The translations under genes were made by a program, and so were the position numbers. From a virus (lineage: Duplodnaviria; Heunggongvirae; Uroviricota; Caudoviricetes), in IMG/VR virus record IMGVR_UViG_3300035696_000002: a stretch of DNA of 64,000 bases. One strand, written 5' to 3'. Positions 25,286 through 57,116 of the stretch are shown here, in pieces (position 1 is the stretch's first letter; each line of letters opens with the position of its first letter). A model generated the notes under the pieces. The model ran no database searches. It was not told the origin of the DNA and was given only the letters and a program-made list of their open reading frames with translations.

Positions 25286-27145
25286 TTACTCCACGTCCAA
25301 TTTGTACGTGCCGTCCATCTCAACTTCCGCACGTTCCGGGCCGTCCATCGGGATATCCTGCTGCACCGCTGGCCCCATCAGATCGTACTCACCGAGGATG
25401 GCACGCCCGTCTTCCGGGGCACCAGCCGCAGTCTTGTGATTGGACGATGCCTTGTCCATTCCGGGATAGCTCAACAAAGTTCCGCCCGTCAGGCCGCAAT
25501 GCATGCCGCTGCGATATGTGCACGATCCGCACTTTTCCGCACCGATGATCGGATTGTGTACGCCCAACTTGTTCTTGAGGTACGTGCAATCAATCTGGCT
25601 CAGAGCAACCTTGATTGGCTTGTCTTTCAACGAAGCGACGAACTTGCGGCATGCTGCACCCGCCTGCTCGGCCCCGACCTTGTTGGCGGCGGCTTCGTAA
25701 ATTGCTTTCATGCCGTAGCCCTTGTTGTGCAACCGCTCAACATCAGCGGCGGCAAACTTGTACACGGCCTTCTTCGGCTGTTCCTTACGTACCGTTTCAA
25801 TGGTGCGTTCCTGAGATGCCGCCTGTTTTTCCTGCGGCAGAATGCTCATCGGACGCTCAAACGGCTTTGTCGTTACTTCCCGAACCTTGCCGAAATGGCT
25901 CTCACAGCTTGCACACTTGGCACTGCTCTGGAAAGCAGCGTTGCGGATGCCCTTCTTGGCGAGGAATTCGAGGTCGCTTTTTGCGACCACAATCCGGCCC
26001 GCGTCATCCTTGCGGAGTGAAGCGACAAAGTTCTTGATCGCTTTGCTCACATCCACATCGTTGAACTTCTCGCTCGCCCATTTGTAAATGCGGTCGAGGC
26101 TGGCTCCGGCTGCGTGCAGCTTCATCACGTGACTGGAGTCGAAAACAACTTTCGATGTTGCACGCTTCACACGCTCGGCCTGCTTGATGTCATACCCTTC
26201 AGTACGGGCAATCGCTGAACTGGTCTTCGGCGGCAGGACTTGCATGTCGGTGCGATTTGCGATCTGCACCAGTGCCGCACGCTTGTTCTTGTTCGGCACG
26301 CCCGGCGTCAAGAGGTTCACGATATGTGAAAGCTCGGCTGTGTTCGCTACAACTGGAAGGTGGTACAAATTACACGACTTGCCTGATGCGTCCTTCTTGA
26401 AGTAAGAGCAGTCGGTGCACGCTGAAATCTGTTTTACCGACTTGGCCTGCGGCGTAATGCCTGCCTGCTTCCATTGGTTATGCTGGCGGACACAATCATT
26501 GCTGCTGACGCTGCTGTTTTTGCCGCGAGGAGCGTCCTTCGGCATGTAAGTATTCGGCTCCAGATATGCCAAGCCCATGAGCCCGGCGTTACGCTGGAGG
26601 TAGTCCGTTGACATCTGGTGATTGAACACCTCAAGATCAGCGGCCATCTTTTCGATGATCTGTGCAACCTTCGCCGGAGATGTGCCCTGATTCAGCAAGT
26701 CCCTCACGTACTTCAGAGCTTGCCCATCAGTGATGCCCGTCGAGACGCTGTTCTCTTTGAAGTTTGGATCGGCCTTCTCAAGATTCATCGTCACTTCGTC
26801 CATCAACGACTCGTTGTCGCCGTAGGAATTCTTGTAATCCTCAGGCCGGGTTGTCGCAGTGCGACGCCAGTCTGAGGGGACTGAACTCACGTGTGGGGCA
26901 GCCTTTTCTTTTTCGTACAGGCGTTCACGAAGAACTGAACTGGTTCTCGGGCCGATAATAGGCGTGTGGTGAGAGGCCGACTCAGCGATTTCATCCATGA
27001 AATCCTTGTCCACGTACTGGTGCGTGCGGTTAAGCTGCTCCTCACCGGAGTCCTTGGCCTCGGCGAGATCGAGGTCTTTCCAATCGGGCTCGCGTTCATC
27101 CAAGAGTGCGTCGATAATGCTTGAGTAGGGTTTCTTCTCTGCCAT
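25286..27145 (-). CDS. Cys-rich putative head protein with internal repeats
   Basis: Repeated CxxC...C clusters and duplicated V..LH..G.....IY..A..K...A...FVASL helices; K/R-x-A junctions. Confidence 0.65.
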   Translation of the reverse strand: MAEKKPYSSIIDALLDEREPDWKDLDLAEAKDSGEEQLNRTHQYVDKDFMDEIAESASHHTPIIGPRTSSVLRERLYEKEKAAPHVSSVPSDWRRTATTRPEDYKNSYGDNESLMDEVTMNLEKADPNFKENSVSTGITDGQALKYVRDLLNQGTSPAKVAQIIEKMAADLEVFNHQMSTDYLQRNAGLMGLAYLEPNTYMPKDAPRGKNSSVSSNDCVRQHNQWKQAGITPQAKSVKQISACTDCSYFKKDASGKSCNLYHLPVVANTAELSHIVNLLTPGVPNKNKRAALVQIANRTDMQVLPPKTSSAIARTEGYDIKQAERVKRATSKVVFDSSHVMKLHAAGASLDRIYKWASEKFNDVDVSKAIKNFVASLRKDDAGRIVVAKSDLEFLAKKGIRNAAFQSSAKCASCESHFGKVREVTTKPFERPMSILPQEKQAASQERTIETVRKEQPKKAVYKFAAADVERLHNKGYGMKAIYEAAANKVGAEQAGAACRKFVASLKDKPIKVALSQIDCTYLKNKLGVHNPIIGAEKCGSCTYRSGMHCGLTGGTLLSYPGMDKASSNHKTAAGAPEDGRAILGEYDLMGPAVQQDIPMDGPERAEVEMDGTYKLDVE

Positions 27146-32511: not shown

Positions 32512-35500
32512 TTACTCGGTTTGTGGGGCGTCAACTTGGGACGACCCCTGATTCGGAAGGTGAGGCGGGGTAGTGAAAACCCCAAAATAAATCTCATCTT
32601 CATGGTACTGCTGGTGGTACTTATCGTACTGAGCTTCGGCTTCTTCCCGTGTATCGAACACGTTGAACCAAACCTCAACGCCCTCATCCATCAACACGAA
32701 CCACTTACCGCTTACATTCGTCGGTTTGTGGTGTGTGATCTCGGCCCCAGTCTTAGACGGCACCGGAGTCGATTCAACCGCACTGCCGATCATAGCTTCC
32801 ATCTCATCAGGAGGAATCGGCGTGCCGCCAGTATCTTCGATCCACAGATTGACCATGCCCAACAGGCCACGGCAAACAGCGTTCATGTCTTCCATGTCCA
32901 CGCCCGGCTCCGGGAAGGCACCAAAAACCGCCTTACCCTTCGCTGAACTGAACTTGAAATATGGCCCAAGGCCCTCAGCTTCGTTTTGGCTGTTCATTCC
33001 CTCGACGAGGTAGTTGATCGCAAGACGCAATTCCTGCTTGGCCCCCTCCGCTGCTCCGGGGAGTACCGTGTCGAGAATCGTATAGGCGTTGAGCAACTGA
33101 CCGAGGACTTCACTCTGGGCAGTCTTCTGCGAAGACGTGTGCCCCTGATCGCTCAGGAACCCATCGGTCTGCTCTTCCTCACTGATGTCAGGAAGTTTTT
33201 GATCCGGGTGATATCCGTAGAAATCCATCCATTCACGGATGTGGGGCTCTTCCCCACGGCCATCACGAATAGCCTCATCAACCATGTCCTGCATGTAGAC
33301 GTTGCCGTCCGTGGTCAGAGGATTTTCAAGGAACACACCGCACTTATCACAGTGCTGCGGGCCGTCTGCGGCACCGCCGCCGTTCGGGTATGGGCCTTTC
33401 GGGTAATCGTCCGAGTCGAACGTGTGCTCATCAGCCGGATTCGCCGGAGGCTGCAACTGCTTCATGGTCTCACGGGCACATTCGTCGCAGACGAGGGCTG
33501 CCTGATAGATGTATGCCTGCTTGCTCGCGACCTTCGCGACTTCTAGTCCGCCCAAACTTGCCATATAGAACCTCTGATTCGGTAACTCCGGTGGGATGTG
33601 CTTCCTCTCTGGCTGCTTCGGAGGCTCGCCAGCCCCGGAGCCACTTTCCGGGTCTTGCTGATTCAGCAAAATGGAAGTCATCGGCCCCTGTTGCTGCTGT
33701 TGCTGGGCATTTTCTTGCGGAACCGCAGCACCGCCAGCGGGGGCACCGACACCAGATTGGGCGGCTTCCTTCGAGGCTGTTGACGACAACTGATTGTTCT
33801 CCACCTGACTGAAATCCTGACTGTACGGATTCACCGGGTCTTGTGCCTGCGTGTCCGACACCTCGCGATCACTTACTTCGTTGCTCGGATTCCGAGGTGC
33901 AACGTAAGGAGCATTCGGCGAATGTGGGCCGGGCTCGGTCAGATCACTGCCTACACGCACACGTCCAGTCGTATCCGAGTGCATTTCGCGACCCGTATCA
34001 CCCGGCATAGTCTGCGGACGAATGGCGTTGTAGAAATCGTGGCCGAGGTCGCCCTCTTTCAACATGCCGCCCTCAACTTCCTTCCTGTACGCATCCCATT
34101 TCTGATCTTCAGGAACGCCCGGCAGATGTTCTCCGCCGTCCTTGCACGGACGCAGGTTGCACGTTACGCATTCAAGGCAACGCGGGCAGTACAGATGCGT
34201 GCGGTTGGCAATCTCCCAGTCCTCTTCTGCATGCTGAGGCTCTTCAGAGACATCGTCCAAGCCTTCCCAATAGCCTTCGGGCCGCTGCAACTTCAGCCGT
34301 TCAGCTTTTTCTTCAGGACTCTCGTCCGCTTTCTTGGGATAAAGCTTCTCCAACGTCTCGTCGAAATTCTTACTGTAGACCGGGCATTCCATCTTGTGGT
34401 GCCCCGTAACAGAACCGCAGCACGGCAATGCCGGGCCAAGGGAAGTAGCCCGCTTGTCCGAGGTCATTTTAACCTGCCGTTGTGGGTTGTCATCCTGATC
34501 TTGCTGTACCTGTTGCTGACCTTGAGGCGTATTGACTTGCTGCGGGCCTTGCTGATCGACTTGCGGAGCTTGCTGATCGGCGGGGACTGCATCAACTTCG
34601 TCAGTGATGGTCATCTGGTTTTGGGTTGGCGTTTGAGATACCGTTTCGCCCTTACCGGAGAGCAGATTCATCGCTGAAATTCCAGTTGTGACCGCAACGG
34701 AGAGCACAAGCTGCTGGGCAGCGAGTTTCCAGAACGCTCTGAAGCGGTCTGTGCCCTGTTGCTGGGCGTAGCTATCCAATGTCGCAAGGGAAGTAACGCC
34801 CTTCTTCTCCAAAATGGATTCAGCTTTCTGAACGAGCGAGGAGCCGTCGCCAAAATATTCCTGCCACTTATTGCCCAGCCACTTGCCAAGCATCAACACA
34901 ACCCACGACCCAAGGAGGGTTGCAAGCTGCGGATCGAATGCGGCTTTCTTCGGGTGCCGTGATTCAAGCTTCTTGCGTACCGCTTCGCGATCTTCTGATT
35001 CCTCACGCACACCATTGACGTATGCGTAGTACACGGTCTTACCGTCACGCATGAGTTCGCCAATTTCTTCTCGGCGATCATCTGCATACGCCTGCTTGTC
35101 CATGGCGAATAGGTGGTTAATCGAGGCAGCGTGCTGGCCTTTCCACAACGGGAAAGCATGTTGCGGACGCTTCAAACGCCCGTCATTCGTGAAATTGAAT
35201 GCGTAGTTACGAATCCACTCGTCGTCCACGATCATCGGAATGACTGGGTGATTGTGCCCTTCCGCTGCGGCGTCAGCCACGAACGGATTGTTGATGTCAC
35301 AATTCGGGCATTCTTTCCATGTCTCAGCCCGGTGCGGGTTGTCCTTTGTCCACCGACGCGGGAAAGCATCCAATACCTGCTCACGCATCTCTGGTGTGAG
35401 TTCATCACCACGAATAAGGCGAGCGGTCTTCGTACTGCCATTCTTCACGCCTGAGTCCATATCCTGATACGCAGAGAGGTAGGCGTCAAGTGAGGCTGTA

Positions 35501-37788
35501 GAACGGCTCAGATCGTTGCTTCTTGCTTTACCATCAATCAGCGGTGCCCAGAACTCATTCATACCGTGAGTCACGATGATGATCTGAACATCGTTGTACG
35601 GATTTCTCCAAACTTCATCACCACTCGGAGTCGGCTGAGCAGGGTGATACCCATTTTCACCAAGAACCAAACGCCACTCATCAGCGAGAGGCTTGGATGC
35701 CGCCTCTTTTTCCGGCAGATCGGCGAGCATAAGCTCTTCGTGGGTCTTCAAGTTGAAGATCGCAATCTGGTCGTGTTCTTTACCGAGAGCGATGGCGGTG
35801 TCGCGGTCGGCAATTGTCTGAACCACATCGAAGTATGTCTGCCCGGAGTTGGCCCACGTACCGATGCTGCTGGTGGGATCATTCATGGCCGTCTGCACAC
35901 CCTGCGACTCAACGTACTGCTTGACCTGTGCCGGAGCGATCTGTGCCCCATTCTCAATTACCTGAAGGTCTTTGCGAATGCTGACAGACCACATGTCGGT
36001 ACCGTCAAGGTTTCCCATCTTCGGATGGAACGTGGAGCCGCCGTGCTGGTTGTGATACTGGGCAATCTGGGAGTAAAAATCATCCGCCGTCGCAGCGACT
36101 TTCTCCGAAGACAGAATGCGGATGTCCTTGGCAGGCAGATTCGCTTGCGTTGCTTCCAGACACGACTGGCAGTAACGGGTTTTGGTACCGAAAATCTCCA
36201 ACAGGTGGGCGGCAGGATTCATGCAACCACCAGCCTTGTGGCCCAGCGGGCACTTCTCCCACTCACAGGAGCACTGGCCAAGGTTCTGCGGGACACGGTT
36301 TCGATTGAACCACTCGCCGGGCTGCCAATCACGTGTAGCGGGATTCGGATCAGGATCAGCGGCAGTCTTTTCGTCTTCAGTGTGGATCACCATCACGGGC
36401 TCCCACTTCTGATAGTCCTCTTCGTCCTGATTCAAGGCAACATTGCTGCCCTGATTGTGTTCACGGAATTTCTCTGCGTCTTCAGGGGAGAAGAATGCTT
36501 CCTTCGAAGCTCCGTGTTGCTCACGATAAATCTGATCTTCAGTCTTGCGAACGAGGCCCAACTGTTCGGGAGATTTCGGCTTACCACGCTGTGGCATTTT
36601 CGAAATGAGATCGCCCGCTGGTGTGGCTTCTTTTTCAGCAGCAGACAGCGTAATCGGGGCAACCGTTTCCTTGTTAGCCTCGGCAACATCTCCGTCGATA
36701 CCCTCAGCCAAGTGCAGCGAAGACGCACGGGCAGGCACACCCTTCGGCTTGGTCTCGGTCATGTTGCGGACAAGATTGATGAACACGTTGGAATCTTCGT
36801 AGTAGTCGCCGCGTTCACGGACGAACGATGAGATCAGCCCGGCCAAATCGCCGAGATAAGCCTTCAAACTGCCGAGGCTCAGCCCCGTCTCTTTTTCCCA
36901 CTGGGGCAGCATCTCATTCCGCTTGGGCTTAGTACCATGGCTCATGACACTTTCCCAGATCATATCAAACAGGAAGAGATACTGCCCTGCGGTGGTGTAG
37001 GCCTGCTCGTTCTGGCCGTACTTCTTGACTAACCACTTGCCAAAATCTTCTTTGAACTTTTCAACATCGAGATCAGCTTCAACATCCCCAGCCCGGCTCG
37101 GTGTCGCGTACTGCTCGGTCTCAAGAATATTGGTTTCTTCACCTTCGTCAGTGCCCTCATCCTGCATGGACACTTCCTGCTCGGGCTGCATCTTGTTGAT
37201 GTACTCTTGGAAGTCGCCGCGATCACGCATCCAGATGAACGTCTGCCACAGGAAGTGGCTCACCTGACGGGCGAGCGGTTCCTTCTGGACTTTATCGGGG
37301 AATTTCTTGATAGCATTCTGGAAGTTCGCGAGGACGTTGCGGTCTTCGAGGGCCTTGAGAACGCCGAAGTGGATGGCTTCATCCTTCAAATCATCGTCGC
37401 CCTTGAGATGACGACCGATGGTCGAGGCCAGCCAGCTAGACCAATTCATCTTGTCGTCAACAGGGAGCCCGGCCTTTTGGATGTAGCTCTTGACGTAGCG
37501 GTCGAAGTCCTTGTTGTAAGCGACATGGAACCGCATCCACGCCCCGAAGTGGGCCATGGTGACGTTGATTGGGTGGAAGTCGGCGGGAGTCGGAATAGAC
37601 TCCCCCTGTAGATTGGCCAGCTTTACTTTGACCCCAGTGGGGCCGCTGACCATAGATGCGACCCGGTATTTCGTCCCGTCGAGGACGGTGACGATACGCC
37701 CCGGAACGATCAGGTGGGAGAATTTCCTAAAATCCGCCGCCTTGGGCTCAGCGAGTGCGTCGCCCAAAATGTTCGCGGCGTGCTTCAT
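32512..37788 (-). CDS. Putative internal head polyprotein (1758 aa)
   Basis: Sigma-like N-terminal part, then more than ten unrelated modules bounded by K-x-A. Confidence 0.7.
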   Translation of the reverse strand: MKHAANILGDALAEPKAADFRKFSHLIVPGRIVTVLDGTKYRVASMVSGPTGVKVKLANLQGESIPTPADFHPINVTMAHFGAWMRFHVAYNKDFDRYVKSYIQKAGLPVDDKMNWSSWLASTIGRHLKGDDDLKDEAIHFGVLKALEDRNVLANFQNAIKKFPDKVQKEPLARQVSHFLWQTFIWMRDRGDFQEYINKMQPEQEVSMQDEGTDEGEETNILETEQYATPSRAGDVEADLDVEKFKEDFGKWLVKKYGQNEQAYTTAGQYLFLFDMIWESVMSHGTKPKRNEMLPQWEKETGLSLGSLKAYLGDLAGLISSFVRERGDYYEDSNVFINLVRNMTETKPKGVPARASSLHLAEGIDGDVAEANKETVAPITLSAAEKEATPAGDLISKMPQRGKPKSPEQLGLVRKTEDQIYREQHGASKEAFFSPEDAEKFREHNQGSNVALNQDEEDYQKWEPVMVIHTEDEKTAADPDPNPATRDWQPGEWFNRNRVPQNLGQCSCEWEKCPLGHKAGGCMNPAAHLLEIFGTKTRYCQSCLEATQANLPAKDIRILSSEKVAATADDFYSQIAQYHNQHGGSTFHPKMGNLDGTDMWSVSIRKDLQVIENGAQIAPAQVKQYVESQGVQTAMNDPTSSIGTWANSGQTYFDVVQTIADRDTAIALGKEHDQIAIFNLKTHEELMLADLPEKEAASKPLADEWRLVLGENGYHPAQPTPSGDEVWRNPYNDVQIIIVTHGMNEFWAPLIDGKARSNDLSRSTASLDAYLSAYQDMDSGVKNGSTKTARLIRGDELTPEMREQVLDAFPRRWTKDNPHRAETWKECPNCDINNPFVADAAAEGHNHPVIPMIVDDEWIRNYAFNFTNDGRLKRPQHAFPLWKGQHAASINHLFAMDKQAYADDRREEIGELMRDGKTVYYAYVNGVREESEDREAVRKKLESRHPKKAAFDPQLATLLGSWVVLMLGKWLGNKWQEYFGDGSSLVQKAESILEKKGVTSLATLDSYAQQQGTDRFRAFWKLAAQQLVLSVAVTTGISAMNLLSGKGETVSQTPTQNQMTITDEVDAVPADQQAPQVDQQGPQQVNTPQGQQQVQQDQDDNPQRQVKMTSDKRATSLGPALPCCGSVTGHHKMECPVYSKNFDETLEKLYPKKADESPEEKAERLKLQRPEGYWEGLDDVSEEPQHAEEDWEIANRTHLYCPRCLECVTCNLRPCKDGGEHLPGVPEDQKWDAYRKEVEGGMLKEGDLGHDFYNAIRPQTMPGDTGREMHSDTTGRVRVGSDLTEPGPHSPNAPYVAPRNPSNEVSDREVSDTQAQDPVNPYSQDFSQVENNQLSSTASKEAAQSGVGAPAGGAAVPQENAQQQQQQGPMTSILLNQQDPESGSGAGEPPKQPERKHIPPELPNQRFYMASLGGLEVAKVASKQAYIYQAALVCDECARETMKQLQPPANPADEHTFDSDDYPKGPYPNGGGAADGPQHCDKCGVFLENPLTTDGNVYMQDMVDEAIRDGRGEEPHIREWMDFYGYHPDQKLPDISEEEQTDGFLSDQGHTSSQKTAQSEVLGQLLNAYTILDTVLPGAAEGAKQELRLAINYLVEGMNSQNEAEGLGPYFKFSSAKGKAVFGAFPEPGVDMEDMNAVCRGLLGMVNLWIEDTGGTPIPPDEMEAMIGSAVESTPVPSKTGAEITHHKPTNVSGKWFVLMDEGVEVWFNVFDTREEAEAQYDKYHQQYHEDEIYFGVFTTPPHLPNQGSSQVDAPQTE

Positions 37789-39478: not shown

Positions 39479-42400
39479 TTAGACTCGGCGACCCCAGTGA
39501 TACTCGATGCTGAGGTTTGTACCGCTCTGTGTGCTCAATGCACCACTCGGCCCGGCCCCTTGGAACAACAGGAAGCCGTAGAACGGGTGGGCCTTGAAGA
39601 AGCTCACGCCACTCGCGGGAGCGGGCACAGGTTCCATGCTCCACCAGCCCAACACAGCCCAATACTGGTTCGTGTTGAATGTCTGAGTGAACGGAGAGAC
39701 CGGGCCTGTCGGATACGACGGGGAGAATGCCATAGTCGAGCCGCCGTCGAGCGACAATGACATGGCGTCCACGGACATACCGATGCACTGCGGATCGAAC
39801 GAGCCTGCCGCTGGCGTAGCGACGGGTGCGGTGCTGCTTCCGAGACGAGCATTGTTGATGGTGGTCTGGGAACCGTAATCAAACAGATACACCGGGCCGA
39901 AAGCTGCGGTTGAAAACACAGTGCCGCCGCCTGCGTTGAAAGGCGTGGTGCTGTAGTTGTACCCCTGCTGCACAGTAATGCGGAGGTTCGTGATGCCCAC
40001 CTGACGGGCGAACGTGTAAGCGTAGCCCATGTGTGCACGCCAGAGCGGAGTGATTTGTGTGTAAGAGATGCCGCCGTTGGTGCTCACCTCGAACTTGTAG
40101 CCACGCGACATATTCGCGTTTATGAGGTAGTATGGTGCATCCGAAGACTGACCGCCAACCTGAGAACCGAAGTTCATGAAGCACAGGTCAGAGAAGTTAA
40201 ATGTTGACTGACGTGAGCCGCTGTAGAATTGGAGCATACCCAGAGACGGGGTGTTACCGCCGCTGGCTTGCGTAATGCTCAACTGAATCCAGCGGAAGCT
40301 GCCCGGCGTGCTCGCCGTGAAGGCAACGCCGCGTTTGAAGGCGGAGAATCCCGTTTGCGAGTCGATGGTTGTGAACGGCCCGGACGCACTGGTGTTCGAA
40401 CCTTGCAGCACCCACGTTACAGGTGCCCCGGACACAGTGTTGGACGAGTCGTAGAACAGACGGAAGCTGTATCCGCTGATGAGCGTAGCGGCACCCAGAT
40501 CAATCGTGAGCGAGCCAGTGTTGCCCGCGTTCGACTTCCAGAACCGCTGAGCACTGCCTGCGAATGCCTGCCAGTTTGGGAATCCTGCCTGATCGCCGCT
40601 CGATGTGATGTTCGGGCTGGACGCGGTGTACGGTGTGTACACGTTCGTTGTCGGATCGAAGTTGTTTGCCGTGATGACCATCTGCAACGCAGTTGCATCA
40701 TACGGGTAGTTACCAGTGTCCAGCTTCGGCCACGTGACCTGTGTGTTCCACCCGGTAAGAGGCGTTGTCAACGGTGCAGTCTGTGGCGTCGGGTTGATCG
40801 AAGTTGGAGCCGTAAATGCCACGTTGGACTGATCGGTATCCACGAAGTAGAGCCCAACTGCATTTTGCTCTGCCACAGTGCGGGCGTCAGTCTGGAGGAA
40901 CGTCTGTCCAGCAAACATTGACCACGCGAAACGTGACTTACGGGCGAACTTCGTGTTGCCCCAGCACAGATTGAATGTGAAGAATTCGCTGTTGCCGATG
41001 CTGATGTCGTTTGCCGTTCCAGTGTCGGCAGCCGGGCCGTAACCGCCGTTGTAGTACGCAACGGTCGCGGTGAACTGATTAGTTGAAGCCGAGGCCAGAG
41101 TAACCGTCAACCCATTCAAGAAGGTCGCCGTCGTGAGACCGGACAGGGTGACCTTGTCTCCGGGGTTGAAGTTGTTCGTCGTGGTCAACACGGTAAGGGT
41201 GTTGCCAGAGATCGAAACGTTCGTGATCGTCGCCTTGCTACCCTGACTCGTCCAAGTATCACTGCTATTCGGGCCGAACTGTACCTGCAACCCGTAAGGC
41301 AGCGGGACGTTTGTGTTTGCGGACGGGATGGAGATCGGGTTGTTGAAAGCATCGGCGAAATTGTCCGCCATCTTCCACATGACCTCTGCGGTACCGCTGT
41401 TCGCTGTAGGCCCGTAGTTCGGGTAAGTGAGCTTCGCTGCGAACTGTGCACCGCTCAGACCAGCCGAAAGGACGGTCACGGTCATGCCATTCAGGAACGT
41501 GGCATTCGAGACGCCAGAGAATGTCACATGATCGCCCGCACTGAATGTGTTGGTCGCCTGTACGGTGAGGACGTTCCCAGCAATCTGGATGCTGGTGATC
41601 GACGCGGAGTTACCCACCCATTTGTGGTAGGTCGGCAACCATGCAAAACTCTGAGCACACAGACCGTACAGCGAGTTCCCATTTGGCAGATTTTGCGGTG
41701 GGCTCGTGAGGCCGCTGGTGATGCGGATAAAGTGCATGTAGTTGTCCAGCGTCATAACTGGATACGTCCAGTTCTGAGCGGCGTCGTTGCCGATGAAGCG
41801 GCTGCCGAGATCGCCTTCAGTCCAGCAATCCTTACCAAACGAATTGATGGTGACTCCTGCCATGCTGTTGAGATGCATCAACTGAAGTGTGTTCGGGGCT
41901 CCCCACGTGTACCCCGGTGCCGCCTGATAAAGCGGGGAGTCGCCGAACAGCGTGTACGTTTTGTGGACGTAGAACATGGTACGATCAGCGTTTGTCGCAA
42001 AGTCTTTTGCATGCGTGATCGACACTGGCTCATACGCCGGGTTCGAACTGTTGGTAACGAACGTGTCGCTGCCAGTCCAACCGCTGCCGCCGCCGTAGCT
42101 CCAGAGCGTGGAGGCCGGAACTGGTGTCAAGTTGGCATTGGACGTACCAAGGGTCGTTCCGCTGATGTCCAGAACCCACAAGTTGCCAGCCGTCCAGTTG
42201 CCTTGGATGAGCAGCTTGTTCGTTGCCACATCATGCATGAAAGCGTTGGGCATGTAGAACCAGAAATCCTTGAGGTTGTTGAAGCCCGTCTGTCCAGTGT
42301 TGGTGCCGTACTGGATACCCTGCGTCAAAGTGCCGCTCTGGCTAACTGGGCCATAGGTCGAGTTGTACGAAGGAATCGTCGCCGTGATCTGTGATGTTGA

Positions 42401-44806
42401 AGAGGTCAGGACGGTGATGAGTTGACCGTCGAGTTCTGTGTGACCGCCAAGCTGCGTGTTCATGTTAATCATCAACACAGCACCAACCGGGAACTGAGTC
42501 GTCAATGTCGGCGAGAAAGTAATCGTCAGGTTGCTACCAGCCGACTGAATCGTGCTGATGTACGCAGTGTTCGGTGAAGCATCCGGCGTCGTGACGGCGT
42601 CGATTTGAGCGGAGTTCCATGTCGGCCCGGTCGGATCAAGCAAGCCAACCTGCCAACGGATGTTCGGCAGTACGGTCGCTGTCGGCGTCCCGGAGGGGGT
42701 CAGGATATTCGTGACATTCGGGTTCGTGTAGCTGACTTCTTCAACGCAAACAGCCAGACGGCCATCGCGAAGCACAATCAGTTCGTGCAAAGAACGCCCA
42801 TTGTGGCGTGCCTGATTCGGCATGAAGCTCATGGTGCCGAGAGTCTGCCAAGTCTGCGTCCCGATGTTGTAGGAGATGACACCCACACGCGGAGCCACAG
42901 CACCCGTTACCGTCGTAAGACGCGGATCAGGCGACACTGTGCCATAAATGGCATAGAGCGTGGAGCCATCGGCACTCAGTTTCATCGCACCGTAGCACTC
43001 CCAAGTGTGAGCCGGAGTGGGGGCGTTGAAACCGACCAGTGAGATCGCACCGTTAAGCTGGGTGAAATCGTAAATCGCAAGGATGCCATCTTCCGAAAGG
43101 AAGTAAATCTGGTAACCGCCGCATTCACCAGTATCCGGCGTAGAAGCGTAATCCGCATGAGTGAACGAAGCCGTGAATTGCAGCGGTGTGGCTGTCTGCA
43201 CAGTCAAGGTCTGACCGTTCAGGAATGTGGCACTGGTCAAATTCTGGATGTAGATGTTCTGACCATTCTGGTAGTTGTTGTTGGCTGTGATAGTCACGAC
43301 GTTGCTGGTCAGCGAAACGTTCGTGATAATTCCCTGATTGACGCCGGAGACCGCCACGCCAGCGATACGTGGGCGAACAGAGGCAGACCAAGTGTCTGCA
43401 AGATCGAAGAACACCAGCGGCAACATGGAAGACTTGTTCGACCAGATTGAGCATTTCGTATCCGATACGAGACCGTAGTACTCTTCGTTGATCGTGAACG
43501 TAGCTGCCTGACGGATGCGGATGTCAGGATTGAGGCTGGCCACGGCACCGCTCGTAGACTCCGGCGACGATGAGTAGTTTGAAGCCGTCCAGTTCGCCTC
43601 GAATTGCAGGCCAGACAACCCGGTGGACAGGACAGTCAACACCTGTCCGTTGTACTCCGAGTGGTTCTGGAACCCGTTCATGATGACCTGATCCCCGGCT
43701 GCCAGTGTGTTCACGCACACGAATGTCGCGACGTTGCTGGTGACACTCGTCGCAGTAACCGTGAAGTCCTGACCACGCTGCCAGAGGTATTGGGTCTGCA
43801 CATTGACGGGCAGAACTGGTTCTTCTGTGATCCCGTCCTCTTCGTAGCGATACGGGAAGGCATTCCAACCGTTGTCGAACACCTTGGCGAGGTGCATCGT
43901 CAAACCACGACTGTTGAGCTTGCGGACACCAGTGACTTGGAAATACTCCTGTGAGTTGCTGGTGGGAGAACTTGCAGACGCTCCCTTCAATGGATCGGTT
44001 GTGTACGGCCCACCCGAGGCCGGGTTGCCGTTCATGTACGAAGTGGCGACATCATTGCCGCTGTCGATCATGGAGTTGTTGTCGTTGAATCCGGCAGCAC
44101 GCAATGATGGACGCTCTTCAAAGAAGAATTTGGTGTTGCCCGAACCAAGAGTCGAAGAGCCGACCGGGAAATTCGCACAGTACAGGTGGTGATAGACAGG
44201 CGGCATGTACGGCGTGCGGGTGAAGGCTGACGCAGAATTCGTTGCTGTCAAGCTGGCATCAGACAGCGGGTTGCTGGAATCGCGGAACTGCCGGGCAAGA
44301 CCGGAATCCGGGAAAGTCTGATTGACCAACTCAGGCCATGTGTATCCTGTGCCGTGTCCGTACAGCGGTTCATAATCCACAGCGAGGGTGTTGATGTCGA
44401 AAACGTAATCGAACTGCTCACAGCCGCCGACAAAGCTGCCGTAGTAGCCATCACGAGCCACAACCGGGTTCGTCACAGGCGGGATCGTATTGTCAGTGAA
44501 CCACACGCCACGAAGGAAGTATCCACCGTTCGGACGCCACGGGAGCGGGTTGCTCGGCCCAGTGCTCTGGTTGTACCCGTTATCCTGACCATAGGAGCCA
44601 ATGAACGTGTTATTCGAGGACTGGGTGAGGGCGGCATTCTGCCACATACCAAAGATGCGGGTGTAGCGGGCAAGCTGGCCGTTCAGGTTGTCGGGCTGCA
44701 ACGGGTATTCCGACACGTAAGCTCCGGCCTTACGAGTAGCGTCAGAGCCCGAGTTGAACATCATCTTGCCGTTGATGGTGCCGATTTGAAATACGTTAAC
44801 AGCCAT
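39479..44806 (-). CDS. Large adhesin/fibre-like virion protein with five beta repeats and an F5/8-type C (discoidin)-like domain
   Basis: IT.V.I..NVLTV...N.F..G..V...G...ATFLNG...TV repeats; LTIDLG...APVTWVLQGSN...FRWIQLSIT. Confidence 0.75.
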   Translation of the reverse strand: MAVNVFQIGTINGKMMFNSGSDATRKAGAYVSEYPLQPDNLNGQLARYTRIFGMWQNAALTQSSNNTFIGSYGQDNGYNQSTGPSNPLPWRPNGGYFLRGVWFTDNTIPPVTNPVVARDGYYGSFVGGCEQFDYVFDINTLAVDYEPLYGHGTGYTWPELVNQTFPDSGLARQFRDSSNPLSDASLTATNSASAFTRTPYMPPVYHHLYCANFPVGSSTLGSGNTKFFFEERPSLRAAGFNDNNSMIDSGNDVATSYMNGNPASGGPYTTDPLKGASASSPTSNSQEYFQVTGVRKLNSRGLTMHLAKVFDNGWNAFPYRYEEDGITEEPVLPVNVQTQYLWQRGQDFTVTATSVTSNVATFVCVNTLAAGDQVIMNGFQNHSEYNGQVLTVLSTGLSGLQFEANWTASNYSSSPESTSGAVASLNPDIRIRQAATFTINEEYYGLVSDTKCSIWSNKSSMLPLVFFDLADTWSASVRPRIAGVAVSGVNQGIITNVSLTSNVVTITANNNYQNGQNIYIQNLTSATFLNGQTLTVQTATPLQFTASFTHADYASTPDTGECGGYQIYFLSEDGILAIYDFTQLNGAISLVGFNAPTPAHTWECYGAMKLSADGSTLYAIYGTVSPDPRLTTVTGAVAPRVGVISYNIGTQTWQTLGTMSFMPNQARHNGRSLHELIVLRDGRLAVCVEEVSYTNPNVTNILTPSGTPTATVLPNIRWQVGLLDPTGPTWNSAQIDAVTTPDASPNTAYISTIQSAGSNLTITFSPTLTTQFPVGAVLMINMNTQLGGHTELDGQLITVLTSSTSQITATIPSYNSTYGPVSQSGTLTQGIQYGTNTGQTGFNNLKDFWFYMPNAFMHDVATNKLLIQGNWTAGNLWVLDISGTTLGTSNANLTPVPASTLWSYGGGSGWTGSDTFVTNSSNPAYEPVSITHAKDFATNADRTMFYVHKTYTLFGDSPLYQAAPGYTWGAPNTLQLMHLNSMAGVTINSFGKDCWTEGDLGSRFIGNDAAQNWTYPVMTLDNYMHFIRITSGLTSPPQNLPNGNSLYGLCAQSFAWLPTYHKWVGNSASITSIQIAGNVLTVQATNTFSAGDHVTFSGVSNATFLNGMTVTVLSAGLSGAQFAAKLTYPNYGPTANSGTAEVMWKMADNFADAFNNPISIPSANTNVPLPYGLQVQFGPNSSDTWTSQGSKATITNVSISGNTLTVLTTTNNFNPGDKVTLSGLTTATFLNGLTVTLASASTNQFTATVAYYNGGYGPAADTGTANDISIGNSEFFTFNLCWGNTKFARKSRFAWSMFAGQTFLQTDARTVAEQNAVGLYFVDTDQSNVAFTAPTSINPTPQTAPLTTPLTGWNTQVTWPKLDTGNYPYDATALQMVITANNFDPTTNVYTPYTASSPNITSSGDQAGFPNWQAFAGSAQRFWKSNAGNTGSLTIDLGAATLISGYSFRLFYDSSNTVSGAPVTWVLQGSNTSASGPFTTIDSQTGFSAFKRGVAFTASTPGSFRWIQLSITQASGGNTPSLGMLQFYSGSRQSTFNFSDLCFMNFGSQVGGQSSDAPYYLINANMSRGYKFEVSTNGGISYTQITPLWRAHMGYAYTFARQVGITNLRITVQQGYNYSTTPFNAGGGTVFSTAAFGPVYLFDYGSQTTINNARLGSSTAPVATPAAGSFDPQCIGMSVDAMSLSLDGGSTMAFSPSYPTGPVSPFTQTFNTNQYWAVLGWWSMEPVPAPASGVSFFKAHPFYGFLLFQGAGPSGALSTQSGTNLSIEYHWGRRV

Positions 44807-50746: not shown

Positions 50747-53002
50747 TTAGAACTCGTCGCGACCGAACAGGGCCGTGGCAATGTCAACAGGCTTTGCATC
50801 CGGGGCAGCGGGCTTGAGCCGCTTGATAACCGGGGAAGCTGTCTTGGCAACTGCGGCCTTCGGCTTCGCAGCCGGGGCCTTAGCAGCAGACTTCGGGGCC
50901 TGCAATTCGTTGGTTGCGTCCTGCTTGGTACGAACCGCACCCTGCTCTTCAGGAGTGATCTCTTTCAGAGCCTCATCGAAGAGGTCGTCCTTGTGATCGC
51001 TCTCGTTGTCGCGAGTGTCGTTCTTGGCTTCGTCAGACTCGAAGTGCTTTGCAGCTTCGCTGAAGGACTCAACAACGTCCATACCAGCGACCTGCTCGGC
51101 AGTCTTGATCTCAGAAGCAATCAGGCTGGCAAGAGGATCGGCGTCAGCACCTTGCAGGGAGAAGAAATCTTCCATGCTGGCCATCTGAGTGCCTTCCAGT
51201 GAGGCCTCCATCTGCTCGGCAGATGTCGGGCCAAAGTAGCTGTCCATACCACTGGACTCGCCCTCATTGGCAAGAGCGGACTTCTTCTCTTCCATGTTGC
51301 CGCTGTCGAACACGCTGGCGAGGTTAAGCTCACCGGACATGTCCTCTTCTTCAGCGGGCATCTCTTCGTCCATGACGATCTCAGCTTCGCCTTCGGCCTC
51401 AGGCAGTGCAGGCTGTTCGGCGTTTTCGGTGAGAAGTGCCTGTTCGATGGCAGAGATTGCGTCCTTGATTTCCGCAGCCTCTTCCATGACGATTTCCGTC
51501 TTTTCGTCGGTAATCATCTCGGCAGTTGCGTCGGCGGACGGCGGAGCCATCTCGTCGTGCATCGGAACTTCCTCGGCAGGCGGTGCATCCATCGGGGCTT
51601 CGGCAGCCGGAGCTTCGGCAGGAGGTGCATCCATCATCGGCTCTTCAGCCGTCTTCACAGAGGCGTGCTTCGAGCACTTCTTGTCGCCCTTGCATTCCTT
51701 GCACTCAGCAGCGGCCTTCTTTTCGGCAGCACACTTGTCGCAACCTTCGCAGTTGGCACCGTGAGCACACTTGGCAGCGGCAGACTTCTTGCACTCGTCG
51801 CAGCCCTTGCAGTCCTTATCGTGAGCGGTCTTCGGCTTGGCAGATGCTTCCTTGCCAGCCTTGTCGCCTTCGGACTTGTTGACGGTGTCCATCGGGCGGT
51901 GCTCAGCTTCAGTCTGTGACTGAGGAGAACCCGCATCCATTGGCTTCGGCTCGGAAGCAGGCCCGCCGCCGTGACCACGACCATCGTTGTAGGTCTCGGT
52001 CTGCGGCCCAGCGTCCTTGCGGTCGTCGGCAGTCTTCGCGGCAGTGGCGTTCTTCGCCTCGCCCTTGAGTTCTTTCTCAACGGCAGCACGTTCGGACTTG
52101 AGGATGGATGGATTTTCGAGTAGGTCGTTCAGTTCAACCTTGTGGACTTCCTTGAACTGTTCCGCGATCTTGGTGTAGTGGGCATTCTTTGCGGTCTGAC
52201 GGAGGGCGGCGTTGAGAACCTTTGTCTGGTTCAAAAGCAGATTGGCAGCAAAACTCTTCTGCACGTTTGCCGGGGCATCGGGCAGCATTGTTTTCGCAAT
52301 AGTCCATGCCGAGGCCACGCGAACTTGTGCTTCTTTCTTGATCGCCTCACGCTTCGTTTTGATTTCGGCGAGCTTCTTTTGAACGTCAGTTGCCATAGTG
52401 GAGCCTTCCTTTTTTGTCTCAGAAGAGGCAGAAATGCCCTTCTTATCAGGGGATTGGTAGCTGTTTTTCTTGCTTGCTGAGGATTGAGAAGCCATCGGGG
52501 GCTCCAAAGGAGCGGGTTCGGCGACTTCAGGGGCCGCTTCAGCGGCGGGTGGTGCAGGAACTTCTTCGACTGGGGCGGCTTCAGGAGCCGGGGCCGGAGC
52601 AGCCGGGGCAGCCAACTCAGGTGCCGGAGGTGCAGCCGGGGCAGGAGGTGCTAAGGGTGCCGGGGGAATCCCCATACCGCCCTCGGGCTCGCCGCCTGCG
52701 ATGCCTGCGATCTCGGGGTCGATATCAGACAACAGCCGCTTGATCTCTTCAGACCACTGGCCGTTCTTCAGCTTCTCCCACTCGGAGATAAGCTGAATGC
52801 CCTCACGCATTTTGCGGATTTCTTCTTCAAGCTGTTCACGCTTGTCCGCCAGCATGTCAAATTCTGGGGATGTGCCCATGCCCAAACCACCGCCCATCGG
52901 CGGCTCTGCCATCTCGGGCATACCCATAAGCTGATCGTCGATCATGTCGAGTTCAGCCTGCTTACGATCCAACGCTGCTTGTACCTTTTTCAAGTTTGCC
53001 AT
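50747..53002 (-). CDS. Capsid scaffolding protein
   Basis: Acidic, Ala/Pro-rich coiled-coil protein between protease and MCP; many K-x-A sites. Confidence 0.7.
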   Translation of the reverse strand: MANLKKVQAALDRKQAELDMIDDQLMGMPEMAEPPMGGGLGMGTSPEFDMLADKREQLEEEIRKMREGIQLISEWEKLKNGQWSEEIKRLLSDIDPEIAGIAGGEPEGGMGIPPAPLAPPAPAAPPAPELAAPAAPAPAPEAAPVEEVPAPPAAEAAPEVAEPAPLEPPMASQSSASKKNSYQSPDKKGISASSETKKEGSTMATDVQKKLAEIKTKREAIKKEAQVRVASAWTIAKTMLPDAPANVQKSFAANLLLNQTKVLNAALRQTAKNAHYTKIAEQFKEVHKVELNDLLENPSILKSERAAVEKELKGEAKNATAAKTADDRKDAGPQTETYNDGRGHGGGPASEPKPMDAGSPQSQTEAEHRPMDTVNKSEGDKAGKEASAKPKTAHDKDCKGCDECKKSAAAKCAHGANCEGCDKCAAEKKAAAECKECKGDKKCSKHASVKTAEEPMMDAPPAEAPAAEAPMDAPPAEEVPMHDEMAPPSADATAEMITDEKTEIVMEEAAEIKDAISAIEQALLTENAEQPALPEAEGEAEIVMDEEMPAEEEDMSGELNLASVFDSGNMEEKKSALANEGESSGMDSYFGPTSAEQMEASLEGTQMASMEDFFSLQGADADPLASLIASEIKTAEQVAGMDVVESFSEAAKHFESDEAKNDTRDNESDHKDDLFDEALKEITPEEQGAVRTKQDATNELQAPKSAAKAPAAKPKAAVAKTASPVIKRLKPAAPDAKPVDIATALFGRDEF

Positions 53003-53919
53003 TATCGCCTCAGGTGCCCTTTTGGGTCTTCGTCCAGAAGAACGTCGCCTACTGTAAGGGCTTCAAAGTCAGTCTTTTCCGAGGCCGCTTTGGCGAAGGA
53101 CGCAGTATTAGTGGCTTCCTCCAAGGCTGCCTTCCGGGTGTACGGGGATTTCGGCCCCATCCACTCATCCGCCACGATGTTCCGTTTGGCGGCTCCGGGG
53201 AAGGCCGGGGTTGCTACCCAGCTTGCTTCCACGAACTTAACCCCACCGTTTTCCATGGTTTTGTGGCCGCAAAGTTCAGCGACCCGGCGTGCGACGCCGT
53301 CATCGTCCGCAAGGAACATGCCCTTCTGGAACGACAGGTGGTTGCAATAAGTGTTCTGATCGGTGACGTGGGCTCCGCAATAAGAGCAGATGACGAGGTC
53401 AGTCACGCAGCCCATGGACAGGTAGCGGACTTTGCCTTCGCGGATATCGTTCACCAGCTTCTCGTGCGTCATGTCGGTCGCCACGAGGATGTCGCAGAAG
53501 TAAACCCAGATTTGCTCTTCGGGAACGATCTGGACTTTACGAAGGACGGCATCGAGGATGTGCCCCTTCGCGTACTTGGAATTCTGGAAGTGTTCGACGA
53601 AGTTGAAAGCCCCGACGAAACTGCGGTGCGACAGCTTCAACACCTCGTTCGTCCATGCGTCATCGTTGTTGTTTACGAGGTGACTGCATTCCGGCTTGAT
53701 GTGATAGTCAAACGGGTCTGCCTCGGTCATGACCGAGGACATGATCGTGCAGTGCGACAAAATATACTTCGAGGAGTCCGCAGCGAACTTCGAGAACGAC
53801 GCGGTCTTGTGCCCGAACGTGCGGGTGCCGTACATCTTGTCCCAATCGGGAACAGAGAGAGTGGGCTCCTTCAATTCGGCGTTCGCGTATTTCTTGAAAG
53901 CTGGTTCTTTTTCGGACAT
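53002..53919 (-). CDS. Prohead (capsid maturation) protease with Zn-finger insert
   Basis: NNNDDAW, FVEH (His), LSMGC (Ser), CSYC...CNH, FVEASWVATPA; start re-called to MSEKE. Confidence 0.82.
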   Translation of the reverse strand: MSEKEPAFKKYANAELKEPTLSVPDWDKMYGTRTFGHKTASFSKFAADSSKYILSHCTIMSSVMTEADPFDYHIKPECSHLVNNNDDAWTNEVLKLSHRSFVGAFNFVEHFQNSKYAKGHILDAVLRKVQIVPEEQIWVYFCDILVATDMTHEKLVNDIREGKVRYLSMGCVTDLVICSYCGAHVTDQNTYCNHLSFQKGMFLADDDGVARRVAELCGHKTMENGGVKFVEASWVATPAFPGAAKRNIVADEWMGPKSPYTRKAALEEATNTASFAKAASEKTDFEALTVGDVLLDEDPKGHLRR

Positions 53920-53942
53920 TTTTGTCCCTCTACTTAATAGGC

Positions 53943-56900
53943 TTAAAGTGTATAAAAAACGCCACAATCAAGGCATTCTGCCAGTATCGGCCCTAGATCG
54001 TTGGACTTAGCTTTGTCGCTATCGGCTGCAATGGCCTTTGCACTCTTACACATCGGGCACTTCGGAGCGTCTGCCGCTTCCTTGGAGCCAAAGTGCTGCT
54101 GCCCCTCAAACCAGTCGTTCGTGTACTCTTCGCCGACTTCTTTCCAAAGCTGATTCATGTCGTAGCCGTTCTCTCTGGCAACCTGAATCATCTCGCCGTC
54201 TTGCATGAAAGCTTCACGAGCCTGCCGCTTAACATCGCTCACCTGATCCAAGAAATGTTCGTCCTGCATGTCGAGGTAGAGGTCGTCTTCCCCGCTGGCC
54301 ATCACATCGAGCGTGTGACCGTTCTCATCCGGCTTCGGGGCGGGTTTGGGGAACTCAAAGTTCGTGACCTTGATGATGACATCGCCCAGATTCAGGTAAC
54401 CGACGCGGTCGATTTCGTTAATCTGGTGCTGTGTGATCGGCCCCCAGTTCTCATTGATGATCGGAATCGCTTTGCCTTTGTCGCCGACATACCAGCGACC
54501 AATCTCAGTCTTGCCATCCGGCTCAAAAGCGTACAGCTTCCAGTTACCACGACGTTTCGGAAGTATCTCTCCCTCCAATGCAGCCGCATTGACTGTCTTC
54601 TTGGGGCCGGAATCCTGAGGGATATCGTCGTACACACCTTCCATGATTTCTTTCTTCAGCGATTCATCGAGGTGACCACGTGAGTCATCGCGAGGTGGTT
54701 TGTAGCTGGGAGAATGCAACGGATCAATCTTCGCTTCCTTCTGAGACGATTGCACGCCAGTCACCGGGCCGTTGCCCTCCATCAGATCGTTCGCAGCAGC
54801 ATCAGCCTCAGGATCATCCGACGCCCCACCCGGATTTGCGGTGCCGCCAATCGGCGTACCCATGCCATAACTCTTCTCGACGATGTCGGCAAGCTTTACG
54901 GATTGACCAGCAACCACAGCCTTAATCAGATCGGAAGTCACTGGAGTGACGCCGACAATCTGCTCAGGCTTGATGGCTCCGACAGCCTTCAACCATTTTC
55001 CTTGAGCCCCGGCCTGACCCATCGGATCGGCAGTATCCTGCACCCATTTTTCTTTGCCGGGAGTGAATGAGACGACAGAAATCTTGCCCGTCCCCATGGA
55101 CTTGTTGAAATCCCAATCCATTTTTCCGGCCCAGCGGACAGCATCAATCGGGTTGTTGAATGCGAAAATTTCGCCTTCACCGTAACGCTCATCGCTCTCG
55201 CCCTTCACCCAGTTGGAGGGCTGGAGCGGGAGAATGCCTTTCGCCTGAATGGCGGGCACTTTTTCTGTCTGAGTTACGTGGTAGAGTTTTTTAGCGGCGG
55301 ATTTCGCGAACGGATCGCTGCCGTCGCAATTCGAGCACGTCTCCACGAAGGATGAGACTTTCGGTGCGGAGCAACGGCACGTTTGCACGTTACCGCATTT
55401 GCGGCAAGTAGTTTTTTGATGATGGCACGATGCAGTCTTGTCTTGACCAAGAGCCTCTTTCAGTTTCTCGTGGAATTCACGGACGGCAGCCTGCTTATCG
55501 ACTCCTGTTGGCCGCACAAATGTGCAGCAATCATCGTTGTCAACTTCGATTGTCCCATCCGGCAGTTTACGATCTGCCAGTTCAGGATCGGCCATCACTG
55601 TTGGATGCTTGCACGAGTCAACCATTTCACCAGCCGCATTCTTGGAGTGGGGTGTGCGGTGAATGCAATCCATACACGAGAACGGCCCGCCGCCTGCGAA
55701 GCCGGACATCTTAGTACCCAGCACAGTCAGTTCCGCTCCCTTTTCTGCAACCTTAGCCGAGGCTTCCTTGGGGTCGTTGATTCCGGGCACAATTCCATGA
55801 TCCCAATTCTTGCCGCAATCGTTGCACTTGGCGGTCTCGAAATCGGAGGGCATCAAACCATAATCTGTCGAACCACAATGCGGGCACTTCGGTTTCCCCG
55901 CAGCTTGCTTCCCTGTGAGTCGTTCCAACTCTTCCCGTGCCTCACACGTTTCGCAATCGCAATCTTCTCTGCCAGTGCCTTCGCAGTCGCCCTGTGCGAG
56001 CCCTTCGAGTTGCACGCGATACATTCTGTCGAGCATATCCGGGCTTAACTGCGGTGCATTCATCGCTTGCTTCTCTGCCCCCTGCCTCACGGAATTCAGC
56101 CATGCGGTGCCGTCTTCCGTAGTCATGCCATGGTCGATTTTCTTACCGGGATAAGCTTCTTTCAATTTTTCGTAGAGCTTGGTCGCGATTCCTTTGCGAC
56201 GGAAATTTGGTCTCACGGACAAATACTTGATGCTGATTTCATCCCCGACAACGGAAAAGTTAAGCTTACCCACGCACGGAGCTTCCGGCGAAGCCTCCCC
56301 GTAAGTCGCGTATACAGCACCAAAATTTTCACCCCTGTAGCTGTCGTGGATATCGTCCCAGTAACGGAGCCCGGCGACGATGTCATCGACACTTTTCTCG
56401 GTCTCCAATGCGGCGGTTTTGCTGCGGGAGGAGAGTTGCTGCGACAGAGTATTCAGCGGGCCAGAGTCATCGACCGCTCCGTTGGTCTGGTGCTGCCACG
56501 TCTGAGCTTTTGGATTGACGACAACCCGCTGATCTTTTCCCAAGGCCCACATCAGGGTGCCATCGGAAACACGGCCAACGAATTTGTATCCGTGCTTGTT
56601 CAGCACATCATGCAGGTTTTCATCGGGATCGCTTTCCTTGAAGAAGGTTGCGTCCTGAACCCCCTCAGGGGATTTGGGCAGGTTGGGATCGTTTACGACT
56701 TTGACAGGCATAGCGTCCACCGAGGCTGTGACGGTAGGTGCAGCATCGGCGGGTTCAGCATATTCTCCGTACTCGTCGCCGCACCAACTCTCATACTTCT
56801 CATCGCTGAGTTCCGGGTGATACCAGCCATACTCATGGCCCCGGTAGTTGTCGTAGCCCCACGGATCGCGGATTTTCTTGATCTGGCGACCGCAATGTTT

Positions 56901-57116
56901 GCACGTGGCGGTGTCAGCCGGGGCGGAAGCTCTGATGTCTTTGGGCGGGATAATCACGGGTGGAATGCGATTCGACTCCGGCTCCGTACCCTTCTCACCC
57001 CACGGCTTCCGGTAGTTCGGCGGCTCCGCGTGATGCTGGTGGGTCGCGTAGTCTGGATCGTTGAACATCTCCAGCAGTGCGTCCATGCCCTTTTTCTTGA
57101 AAAGTGGGGAGTTCAT
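53943..57116 (-). CDS. Putative internal head polyprotein with GNAT, ART-like and Zn-finger modules
   Basis: VRPNFRRKGIATKLY (GNAT), LYHVT....PAI...GI.P (ART-like), several CxxC modules and K-x-A junctions. Confidence 0.75.
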   Translation of the reverse strand: MNSPLFKKKGMDALLEMFNDPDYATHQHHAEPPNYRKPWGEKGTEPESNRIPPVIIPPKDIRASAPADTATCKHCGRQIKKIRDPWGYDNYRGHEYGWYHPELSDEKYESWCGDEYGEYAEPADAAPTVTASVDAMPVKVVNDPNLPKSPEGVQDATFFKESDPDENLHDVLNKHGYKFVGRVSDGTLMWALGKDQRVVVNPKAQTWQHQTNGAVDDSGPLNTLSQQLSSRSKTAALETEKSVDDIVAGLRYWDDIHDSYRGENFGAVYATYGEASPEAPCVGKLNFSVVGDEISIKYLSVRPNFRRKGIATKLYEKLKEAYPGKKIDHGMTTEDGTAWLNSVRQGAEKQAMNAPQLSPDMLDRMYRVQLEGLAQGDCEGTGREDCDCETCEAREELERLTGKQAAGKPKCPHCGSTDYGLMPSDFETAKCNDCGKNWDHGIVPGINDPKEASAKVAEKGAELTVLGTKMSGFAGGGPFSCMDCIHRTPHSKNAAGEMVDSCKHPTVMADPELADRKLPDGTIEVDNDDCCTFVRPTGVDKQAAVREFHEKLKEALGQDKTASCHHQKTTCRKCGNVQTCRCSAPKVSSFVETCSNCDGSDPFAKSAAKKLYHVTQTEKVPAIQAKGILPLQPSNWVKGESDERYGEGEIFAFNNPIDAVRWAGKMDWDFNKSMGTGKISVVSFTPGKEKWVQDTADPMGQAGAQGKWLKAVGAIKPEQIVGVTPVTSDLIKAVVAGQSVKLADIVEKSYGMGTPIGGTANPGGASDDPEADAAANDLMEGNGPVTGVQSSQKEAKIDPLHSPSYKPPRDDSRGHLDESLKKEIMEGVYDDIPQDSGPKKTVNAAALEGEILPKRRGNWKLYAFEPDGKTEIGRWYVGDKGKAIPIINENWGPITQHQINEIDRVGYLNLGDVIIKVTNFEFPKPAPKPDENGHTLDVMASGEDDLYLDMQDEHFLDQVSDVKRQAREAFMQDGEMIQVARENGYDMNQLWKEVGEEYTNDWFEGQQHFGSKEAADAPKCPMCKSAKAIAADSDKAKSNDLGPILAECLDCGVFYTL

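Follow-up and report, generated by a model that had tools for sequence, protein, structure and literature searches.

A cysteine-rich cassette of a megaphage head polyprotein and a small free-standing phage protein are probable remote relatives within one unnamed, putatively zinc-binding domain family

The stretch of DNA analysed here (the window; 64,000 nucleotides (nt), bases 143749–207748 of a 463-kb IMG/VR megaphage record) carries on its minus strand a gene for a multi-module head polyprotein of 1057 amino acids (aa; 53943–57116), and immediately downstream on the same strand a prohead (head maturation) protease gene (53002–53967; phrog_18299, E = 5.6e-16). The polyprotein contains a GNAT domain (Pfam Acetyltransf_1, PF00583, E = 1.8e-5), several Cys-rich modules and, among these, the short module that is the main subject of this study. 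The second subject is a free-standing open reading frame (ORF) of 53 aa, located 50 kb from the module and also on the minus strand (5804–5965), which the initial annotation had regarded as a look-alike of the module, taking the polyprotein modules to be captured copies of small stand-alone gene families. The protease has 80 relatives with 57–79% identity, the position of the polyprotein gene upstream of the protease gene is kept in 80 related loci, and the product encoded at that position varies from ~550 to ~2000 aa across them, a range pointing to a protein of variable and modular make-up.

The core of the module comprises residues S563–G599 (SCHHQKTTCRKCGNVQTCRCSAPKVSSFVETCSNCDG), maps exactly to 55430–55320 on the minus strand and reads HH-x4-C-x2-C-G-x4-CRC-x3-K-x7-C-x2-C. 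In translation the polyprotein runs as ...DKTA, then SCHHQKTTCRKCGNVQTCRCSAPKVSSFVETCSNCDGSDPFAKSA, then A..., with a K-T-A motif, presumed to be either a protease site or a linker, directly before the module (K560–A562, 55431–55439, minus strand) and a K-S-A motif closing it six residues after the core (K605–A607, 55296–55304, minus strand). Conservation of the module extends across the polyproteins of the megaphage clade: in six orthologues (48–82% identity), including those from four database polyproteins and from a 455-kb relative, HH, C, C, VQT, CRC, S, K, V, C, N and C are invariant, and scans of IMG/VR with alignments added 22 module loci, the resulting module-family profile being composed of 15 distinct sequences. 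Membership of this subfamily was defined by the pattern HH-x4-C-x1-2-C-x5-CRC-S-A-P-K-x6-7-C-x2-C together with a significant match to a hidden Markov model (HMM), and the module itself is matched by the 'VQTCRCSAPK' HMM with E = 2.5e-18. For the module, no match among proteins of 31–100 aa came out of a word-index search of 5.8 billion proteins.

The free ORF (H-x4-C-x-C-G-x5-CRC-x7-K-x8-C-x2-C, then a C-terminal helix) begins with a GTG placed directly after the stop codon of the upstream gene and has AAGG located 8 nt upstream, that is, a context of tight gene packing and a ribosome-binding site. An exhaustive phmmer search of 1.84 billion representatives returned 25 matches at E ≤ 1e-3 (best relative, E = 8.8e-8), of which 23 were real, the two long ones (1134 aa and 403 aa) being rejected as repeat or low-complexity artefacts. 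The relatives are mostly 39–109 aa long and share nine invariant columns (H3, C8, C10, G11, C17, C19, G35, C36 and C39), with K7, I14, R18, K27 and V29 nearly invariant; all nine are carried by the free ORF, which is matched by the family HMM with E = 3e-17. Taken together, the 23 relatives and the nine invariant columns make it a genuine conserved gene. The proteins closest to it are solo ones from other phages (50–68% identity), and IMG/VR scans with alignments added 19 free-type loci. Nothing was obtained by scanning IMG/VR with the single free protein or by the word-index search of the 5.8 billion proteins, and searches of ESM Atlas features returned only scores below 0.9.

Both strings quoted in the initial annotation, the module at 55320–55430 and the 53-aa ORF at 5804–5965, are present in the translations, and across the six frames of the 463-kb genome these are the only two sites matching either the full pattern or its cysteine-only form, C-x1-2-C-x5-6-C-x-C-x9-18-C-x2-C. 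The residues said to be shared (H, C-x-C-G, CRC, K and CxxC) proved to be invariant or nearly invariant in the free family, and all of them except G are invariant in the module family as well. The two sequences are ~30% identical, and the link between them is seen only in profile–profile comparison and with a broadened module HMM. When 24 free sequences were compared with six module sequences in hhalign, the match had P = 6e-4 and a probability of 28%; with 37 free and 15 module sequences these values became P = 2.8e-6 and 88% (score 26.7 over 33 columns), and the signal therefore climbs with added diversity (P = 0.051, then 6e-4, then 2.8e-6). Among 317 full column shuffles none reached 26.7 (mean 9.7, maximum 17.8, z = 7.6), and the same was true for 317 shuffles in which only the non-cysteine columns were moved and the cysteines were kept fixed (mean 11.7, maximum 20.7, z = 5.7), while 17 natural Cys-rich decoy family profiles from the same phages scored at most 15.6 against the free profile. 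In a comparison of the free profile with 524 natural Cys-rich segments the best non-self match (P = 7e-5, 40 columns) was the orthologue of the module in the 455-kb relative, and when ~27,600 ORFs were ranked with a broadened module HMM, the first two entries below its own members were the free-type sequences L125 (E = 0.0019) and L111 (E = 0.0072). The claim that the resemblance goes beyond generic cysteine spacing is thus borne out at the profile level, and we consider it probable, at roughly 70–75%, that the module is remotely homologous to the free ORF, the two belonging to sister subfamilies of one unnamed, putatively zinc-binding domain of ~40 residues with the core H-x4-C-x1-2-C-G-x4-5-CRC-x3-7-K-x6-8-C-x2-C and three short predicted strands.

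Sequences that bridge the two forms occur on both sides. Module copies in loci L090–L098 have a C-K-C-G (C-x-C-G) knuckle as in the free type, free-type L125 has a C-K-E-C-G (C-x2-C-G) knuckle as in the module, and L104–L107 read PK-VEVIG-C..C, to be compared with PKPVEVIKNGC..C in the free ORF. The comparison of predicted structures proposed in the initial annotation gave a concordant result, the three strands in the AlphaFold2 (AF2) models of the module and of the free ORF (predicted local distance difference test scores of 70.5 and 83.4, respectively) falling at equivalent aligned positions.

Neither form belongs to a family detected by scans of Pfam, PHROGs and NCBIfam, and only sub-threshold matches were found among PDB sequence profiles for both, although both profiles pick the same sub-threshold chain, the bL31 protein 6ysi_W, and both AF2 models weakly match the C-terminal zinc site of PerR/Fur. 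In shape, the free model comes closest to the PDB entry 5msl (Z = 2.9, root-mean-square deviation 3.5 over 49 residues); a DUF2197 cluster of the Atlas gave a template modelling (TM) score of 0.54 with the same model, with no sequence match to Fin/DUF2197. The Cys/His knuckle ligand pattern is present in both forms, with fold matches of only Z = 2–3 and TM ~0.55. The best, though weak, matches of the profiles and models are bL31, the Zn(Cys)4 site of Fur/PerR and the Bacillus subtilis anti-sigma-F factor Fin (DUF2197), which resemble the phage domain in its three short strands, to which the free form adds a helix, and in its cysteine pairs at the turns, and differ from it in that the likeness amounts to Z of 2–3 and TM of 0.5–0.57 over ~40 residues, with sequence E-values of 0.1–0.8. 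The additional His and CRC pair of the phage domain suggest a second metal site without a counterpart in these three proteins. The likeness to Fin/DUF2197 is only a lead, and none of the three resemblances is a safe basis for assigning a function.

A number of results weigh against homology, and have to be set beside the profile evidence. In BLASTP the free ORF matches the module with E = 5.4 and the whole polyprotein not at all; phmmer searches of 25,294 local ORFs gave no cross-match in either direction; the Smith–Waterman score of 30 was reached by 508 of 2000 composition-preserving shuffles, and even with very cheap gaps by 32 of 2000 (p = 0.016–0.25 over three gap settings). The first of the hhalign values given above (P = 0.051) was obtained with the module profile and the free ORF sequence alone, and the alignment requires three or four one-residue indels in ~35 columns. 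Under HMMER, free-family HMMs of 24 and of 37 sequences never report the polyprotein, and with a six-sequence module HMM the free ORF scores 0.6 bits, at rank 2160. The initial annotation had taken the lack of a significant match between an HMM of the homologues of 5804–5965 and the polyprotein as a sign of generic cysteine spacing, and read literally this lack is what HMMER gives. Neither sequence belongs to the other's subfamily: the module has C-x2-C in place of C-x-C, is without G35, differs in three spacings and is not reported by the free-family HMM, and the free ORF, with its 0.6 bits, falls outside the module subfamily. A reversed module profile still scores 16.5, the module profile ranks the free ORF only 12th of the 524 segments, no structural match exceeded Z = 3 (VIA-align wide) or fell below E = 0.5 (Foldseek against PDB and the Atlas), and the domain is very short and Cys-rich, a situation in which P-values are least reliable.

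These are the observations expected from convergence or chance, by which two unrelated small zinc-binding peptides would have come to share a cysteine framework and a few further residues (G after the knuckle, R between the cysteines, and K), the weak structural matches of both being generic and zinc-ribbon-like. Against this stand the excess of the profile score over the shuffles with fixed cysteines and over every decoy family, its steady rise with diversity, the significant cross-family matches of the module HMM to L125 and L111, the intermediates found in both subfamilies and the recurrence of both subfamilies in head proteins. Convergence is in our opinion rather unlikely.

The tabulation of fused and free occurrences, also called for in the initial annotation, showed that both subfamilies have solo and embedded members, and that both recur in head proteins. 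The free subfamily (KCSCGxxIxQCRC) is mainly one of solo proteins of 40–110 aa in diverse phages and is also found inside head-assembly proteins: 21 of 23 database representatives are no longer than 110 aa, the other two (130 and 183 aa) carrying the domain C-terminally, and in IMG/VR ~13 distinct loci have small ORFs of 46–137 aa and three have large proteins. The module subfamily (..VQTCRCSAPK..) occurs mainly as a cassette bracketed by K-x-A in the megaphage clade's variable head polyproteins, its copies lying mostly in large polyproteins; two copies belong to proteins of other phages, 286 and 496 aa long, and in L104 a translationally coupled solo gene of 96 aa follows a CCA-adding enzyme gene. 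In a tree of 54 domains the two subfamilies are split by a long branch (support 99/96), the free ORF lying among the solo proteins and the module among the module copies. These counts fit the idea of a shared pool from which stand-alone genes and head-polyprotein modules are drawn; the more specific suggestion that the two copies in this window represent a capture event did not hold.

Whether the cassette is delivered as cargo depends on how the K-x-A motifs are read. Such tripeptides occur 17 times in the 1057-aa polyprotein against 7.5 expected (2.3-fold, z = 3.7). Enrichment of 2- to 2.7-fold (z = 2.8–5.1) was observed in six minus-strand proteins of the head region, encoded at 20118–24755, 25286–27145, 32512–37788, 50747–53002, 53002–53967 and 53943–57116, a set which includes the protease itself (53002–53967), and was not observed in a 1775-aa ORF (39479–44806), the SNF2 helicase, the tail sheath protein or other ORFs. 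This distribution is consistent with a protease site specific to the clade. Most polyproteins of the clade have K-x-A or K-x-S before the module, K/R-x-A follows it within 0–8 residues in several orthologues, and the module keeps its K/R-x-A brackets while the neighbouring modules differ between clade polyproteins. The same zinc cassette is flanked by different modules in different clade polyproteins (P0003–P0006 and L086–L101), the genes of which lie at differing distances from the protease gene, and the combination of changing neighbours and changing distances indicates that cassettes have been shuffled among head polyproteins.

It could be argued that the two forms are homologous and that the module is nonetheless no cargo, being a spacer, structural or in contact with DNA, within an internal head protein, and remaining uncut or being degraded during maturation, with K-x-A reflecting only the composition of linkers. 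The module has no enzymatic signature, Cys-rich and K/A-rich stretches are common in neighbouring head proteins of the clade, and K-x-A is also enriched in the 50747–53002 protein, whose gene follows that of the protease and which is not part of the polyproteins. This explanation seems to us rather improbable, since the enrichment is confined to head-region proteins and the protease and is missing from the helicase and sheath, the motifs stand at the module boundaries and the brackets are kept while neighbours change between orthologues, and the solo versions with non-structural neighbouring genes speak for a function independent of the capsid.

A recent capture or release within this genome, with the free ORF as the source or as an excised copy of the module, can be practically dismissed, as, apart from their occurrence in the same genome and their being its sole two matches to the cysteine framework, the two sequences are only ~30% identical with four indels, fall into different subfamilies across the long 99/96 branch and differ in history, the module being conserved in the clade and the free ORF having its closest kin among solo proteins of other phages and being absent both from the syntenic slot and from ten related records. 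It is the supported branch together with the absence of the free ORF from the ten relatives and from the slot of the closest relative that shows the pair not to be donor and recipient.

Under the preferred interpretation of remote homology, the two copies would have reached the genome separately, the module being old in the clade and the solo gene a sporadic accessory gene. The domain would bind zinc through its His and six Cys residues; the polyprotein copy could be excised at K-x-A sites by the prohead protease inside the capsid and the released peptide could enter the host with the DNA, while the solo copy would be made after infection, either form acting perhaps as a small binding module directed against a host or nucleic-acid target.

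Polyvalent proteins, described as injected multidomain proteins with ART, GNAT and 2H domains among others, provide the closest known parallel (Iyer et al. 2017, J Bacteriol 199:e00245-17, PMC5512222; also PMC7824862), and it has been reported that several of their domains (2H, kinase, primase, ParB) also exist solo in phages (PMC5512222). The 1057-aa polyprotein resembles them as a large protein linked to head genes and stringing together unrelated domains. Like them it carries several unrelated effector-type domains (GNAT and distinct Cys-rich modules) and, its gene adjoining the head maturation protease gene, shares their linkage to virion or packaging genes, a linkage which would imply delivery with the DNA. 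A relative of the free ORF, moreover, shares an ORF with the Pfam ART-PolyVal domain. The differences are that no MPTase lies inside the polyprotein, a peptidase being frequent but not universal in polyvalent proteins (a Pfam scan at E ≤ 1 detected no peptidase family, MPTase included, and no ART domain), that processing here is presumed to proceed via the adjacent prohead protease at K-x-A, and that the phage zinc domain matches no Pfam model; the text of PMC5512222 contains neither 'ZnR' nor 'Zn-ribbon'. The principle of solo and fused occurrence is therefore already known, and what is new is the zinc domain family and its K-x-A-bracketed cassette beside a separate prohead protease gene.

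A second parallel is offered by the internal proteins and Alt of phage T4; these head-packaged proteins are trimmed by gp21, the T4 prohead protease with the site L/I-x-E, and are injected. The concept of head-packaged, protease-processed delivery is shared, and the polyprotein gene likewise adjoins a prohead protease gene. The megaphage system differs in having many modules per polypeptide, a presumed K-x-A site and a putative zinc peptide of 40 residues in place of an enzyme.

A more far-reaching scenario would be that the 'CRC' domain is a mobile zinc module which phages deploy in two ways against the same target, either packed in the capsid and cut out by the protease or as a solo early protein, the target being a host factor such as RNA polymerase, as for Fin, and the domain helping to aim or anchor injected effectors beside which it is found (ART, GNAT and Acb1-like 2H); we regard this as a doubtful proposal, put forward as a speculation. 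The more immediate meaning of the comparison is that a short, unannotated Cys-rich cassette of a megaphage head polyprotein emerges as a real and mobile domain, present solo and embedded across unrelated phages, which extends the solo-and-fused theme of polyvalent proteins. The two subfamily alignments and the motif define a new small zinc-domain family outside Pfam, PHROGs, NCBIfam and PDB sequences, the over-reading of the window's two copies as a documented capture event is corrected, and S563–A607 constitutes a concrete peptide with which K-x-A processing by the prohead protease can be tested.

The surroundings of the free ORF and several of the embedded copies deserve separate description. 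The free ORF lies downstream of the SNF2 helicase gene, between conserved genes of 125 aa and 169 aa; a search of ten related large phage records did not find it. The same slot of the closest relative, of 455 kb (L082:6302–6623), contains two unrelated ORFs of 54 and 51 aa; the slot next to the SNF2 helicase gene is a small hypervariable accessory-gene slot. The only match found in this relative with the free-family profile is a local one, CLNCGVVISQCSCG, to the free-family core in a 171-aa protein (L131:1213–1728, minus strand), which was rejected as a member as it has no closing CxxC.

A variant cassette, H-C-x8-C-x2-CG-x5-CCC-x9-C-x2-C, occurs in polyproteins encoded upstream of the protease gene at L004:4989–5066, L006:5119–5196 and L007:2140–2217; it may be a further, third branch of this domain with greater divergence, its score with the free profile being only 16.9.

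Among the large proteins with a free-type domain, that of a 55.7-kb phage (G013; L123:1–2688) is a frame of 996 aa which combines a Peptidase_S78 prohead protease, ART-PolyVal (PF18760, E = 1.9e-23) and the CRC domain and also has long acidic stretches, and is thus a protease-headed polyvalent head protein. Proteins of ~550–620 aa at L108:508–2379 and L112:691–2373 (L128:6669–8330) share an unannotated N-terminal domain of ~260 aa (32% identity), after which come the zinc domain and a coiled-coil tail. A tblastn search of GenBank phages gave nothing for the L108 protein, nor for the free ORF. Directly downstream of the L112 gene come a scaffold gene (phrog_673) and a probable capsid gene, and proteins of this type may be prohead proteases of an unrecognised family. 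On the module side, a 288-aa protein (L103:1438–2301) has an N-terminal module-type domain, an Acb1-like 2H phosphoesterase (PF23474, E = 1.6e-7; phrog_755) and a C-terminal Cys-rich tail, and it could be an enzyme of the type directed against the cyclic oligonucleotide-based antiphage signalling system (anti-CBASS), equipped with a zinc adaptor.

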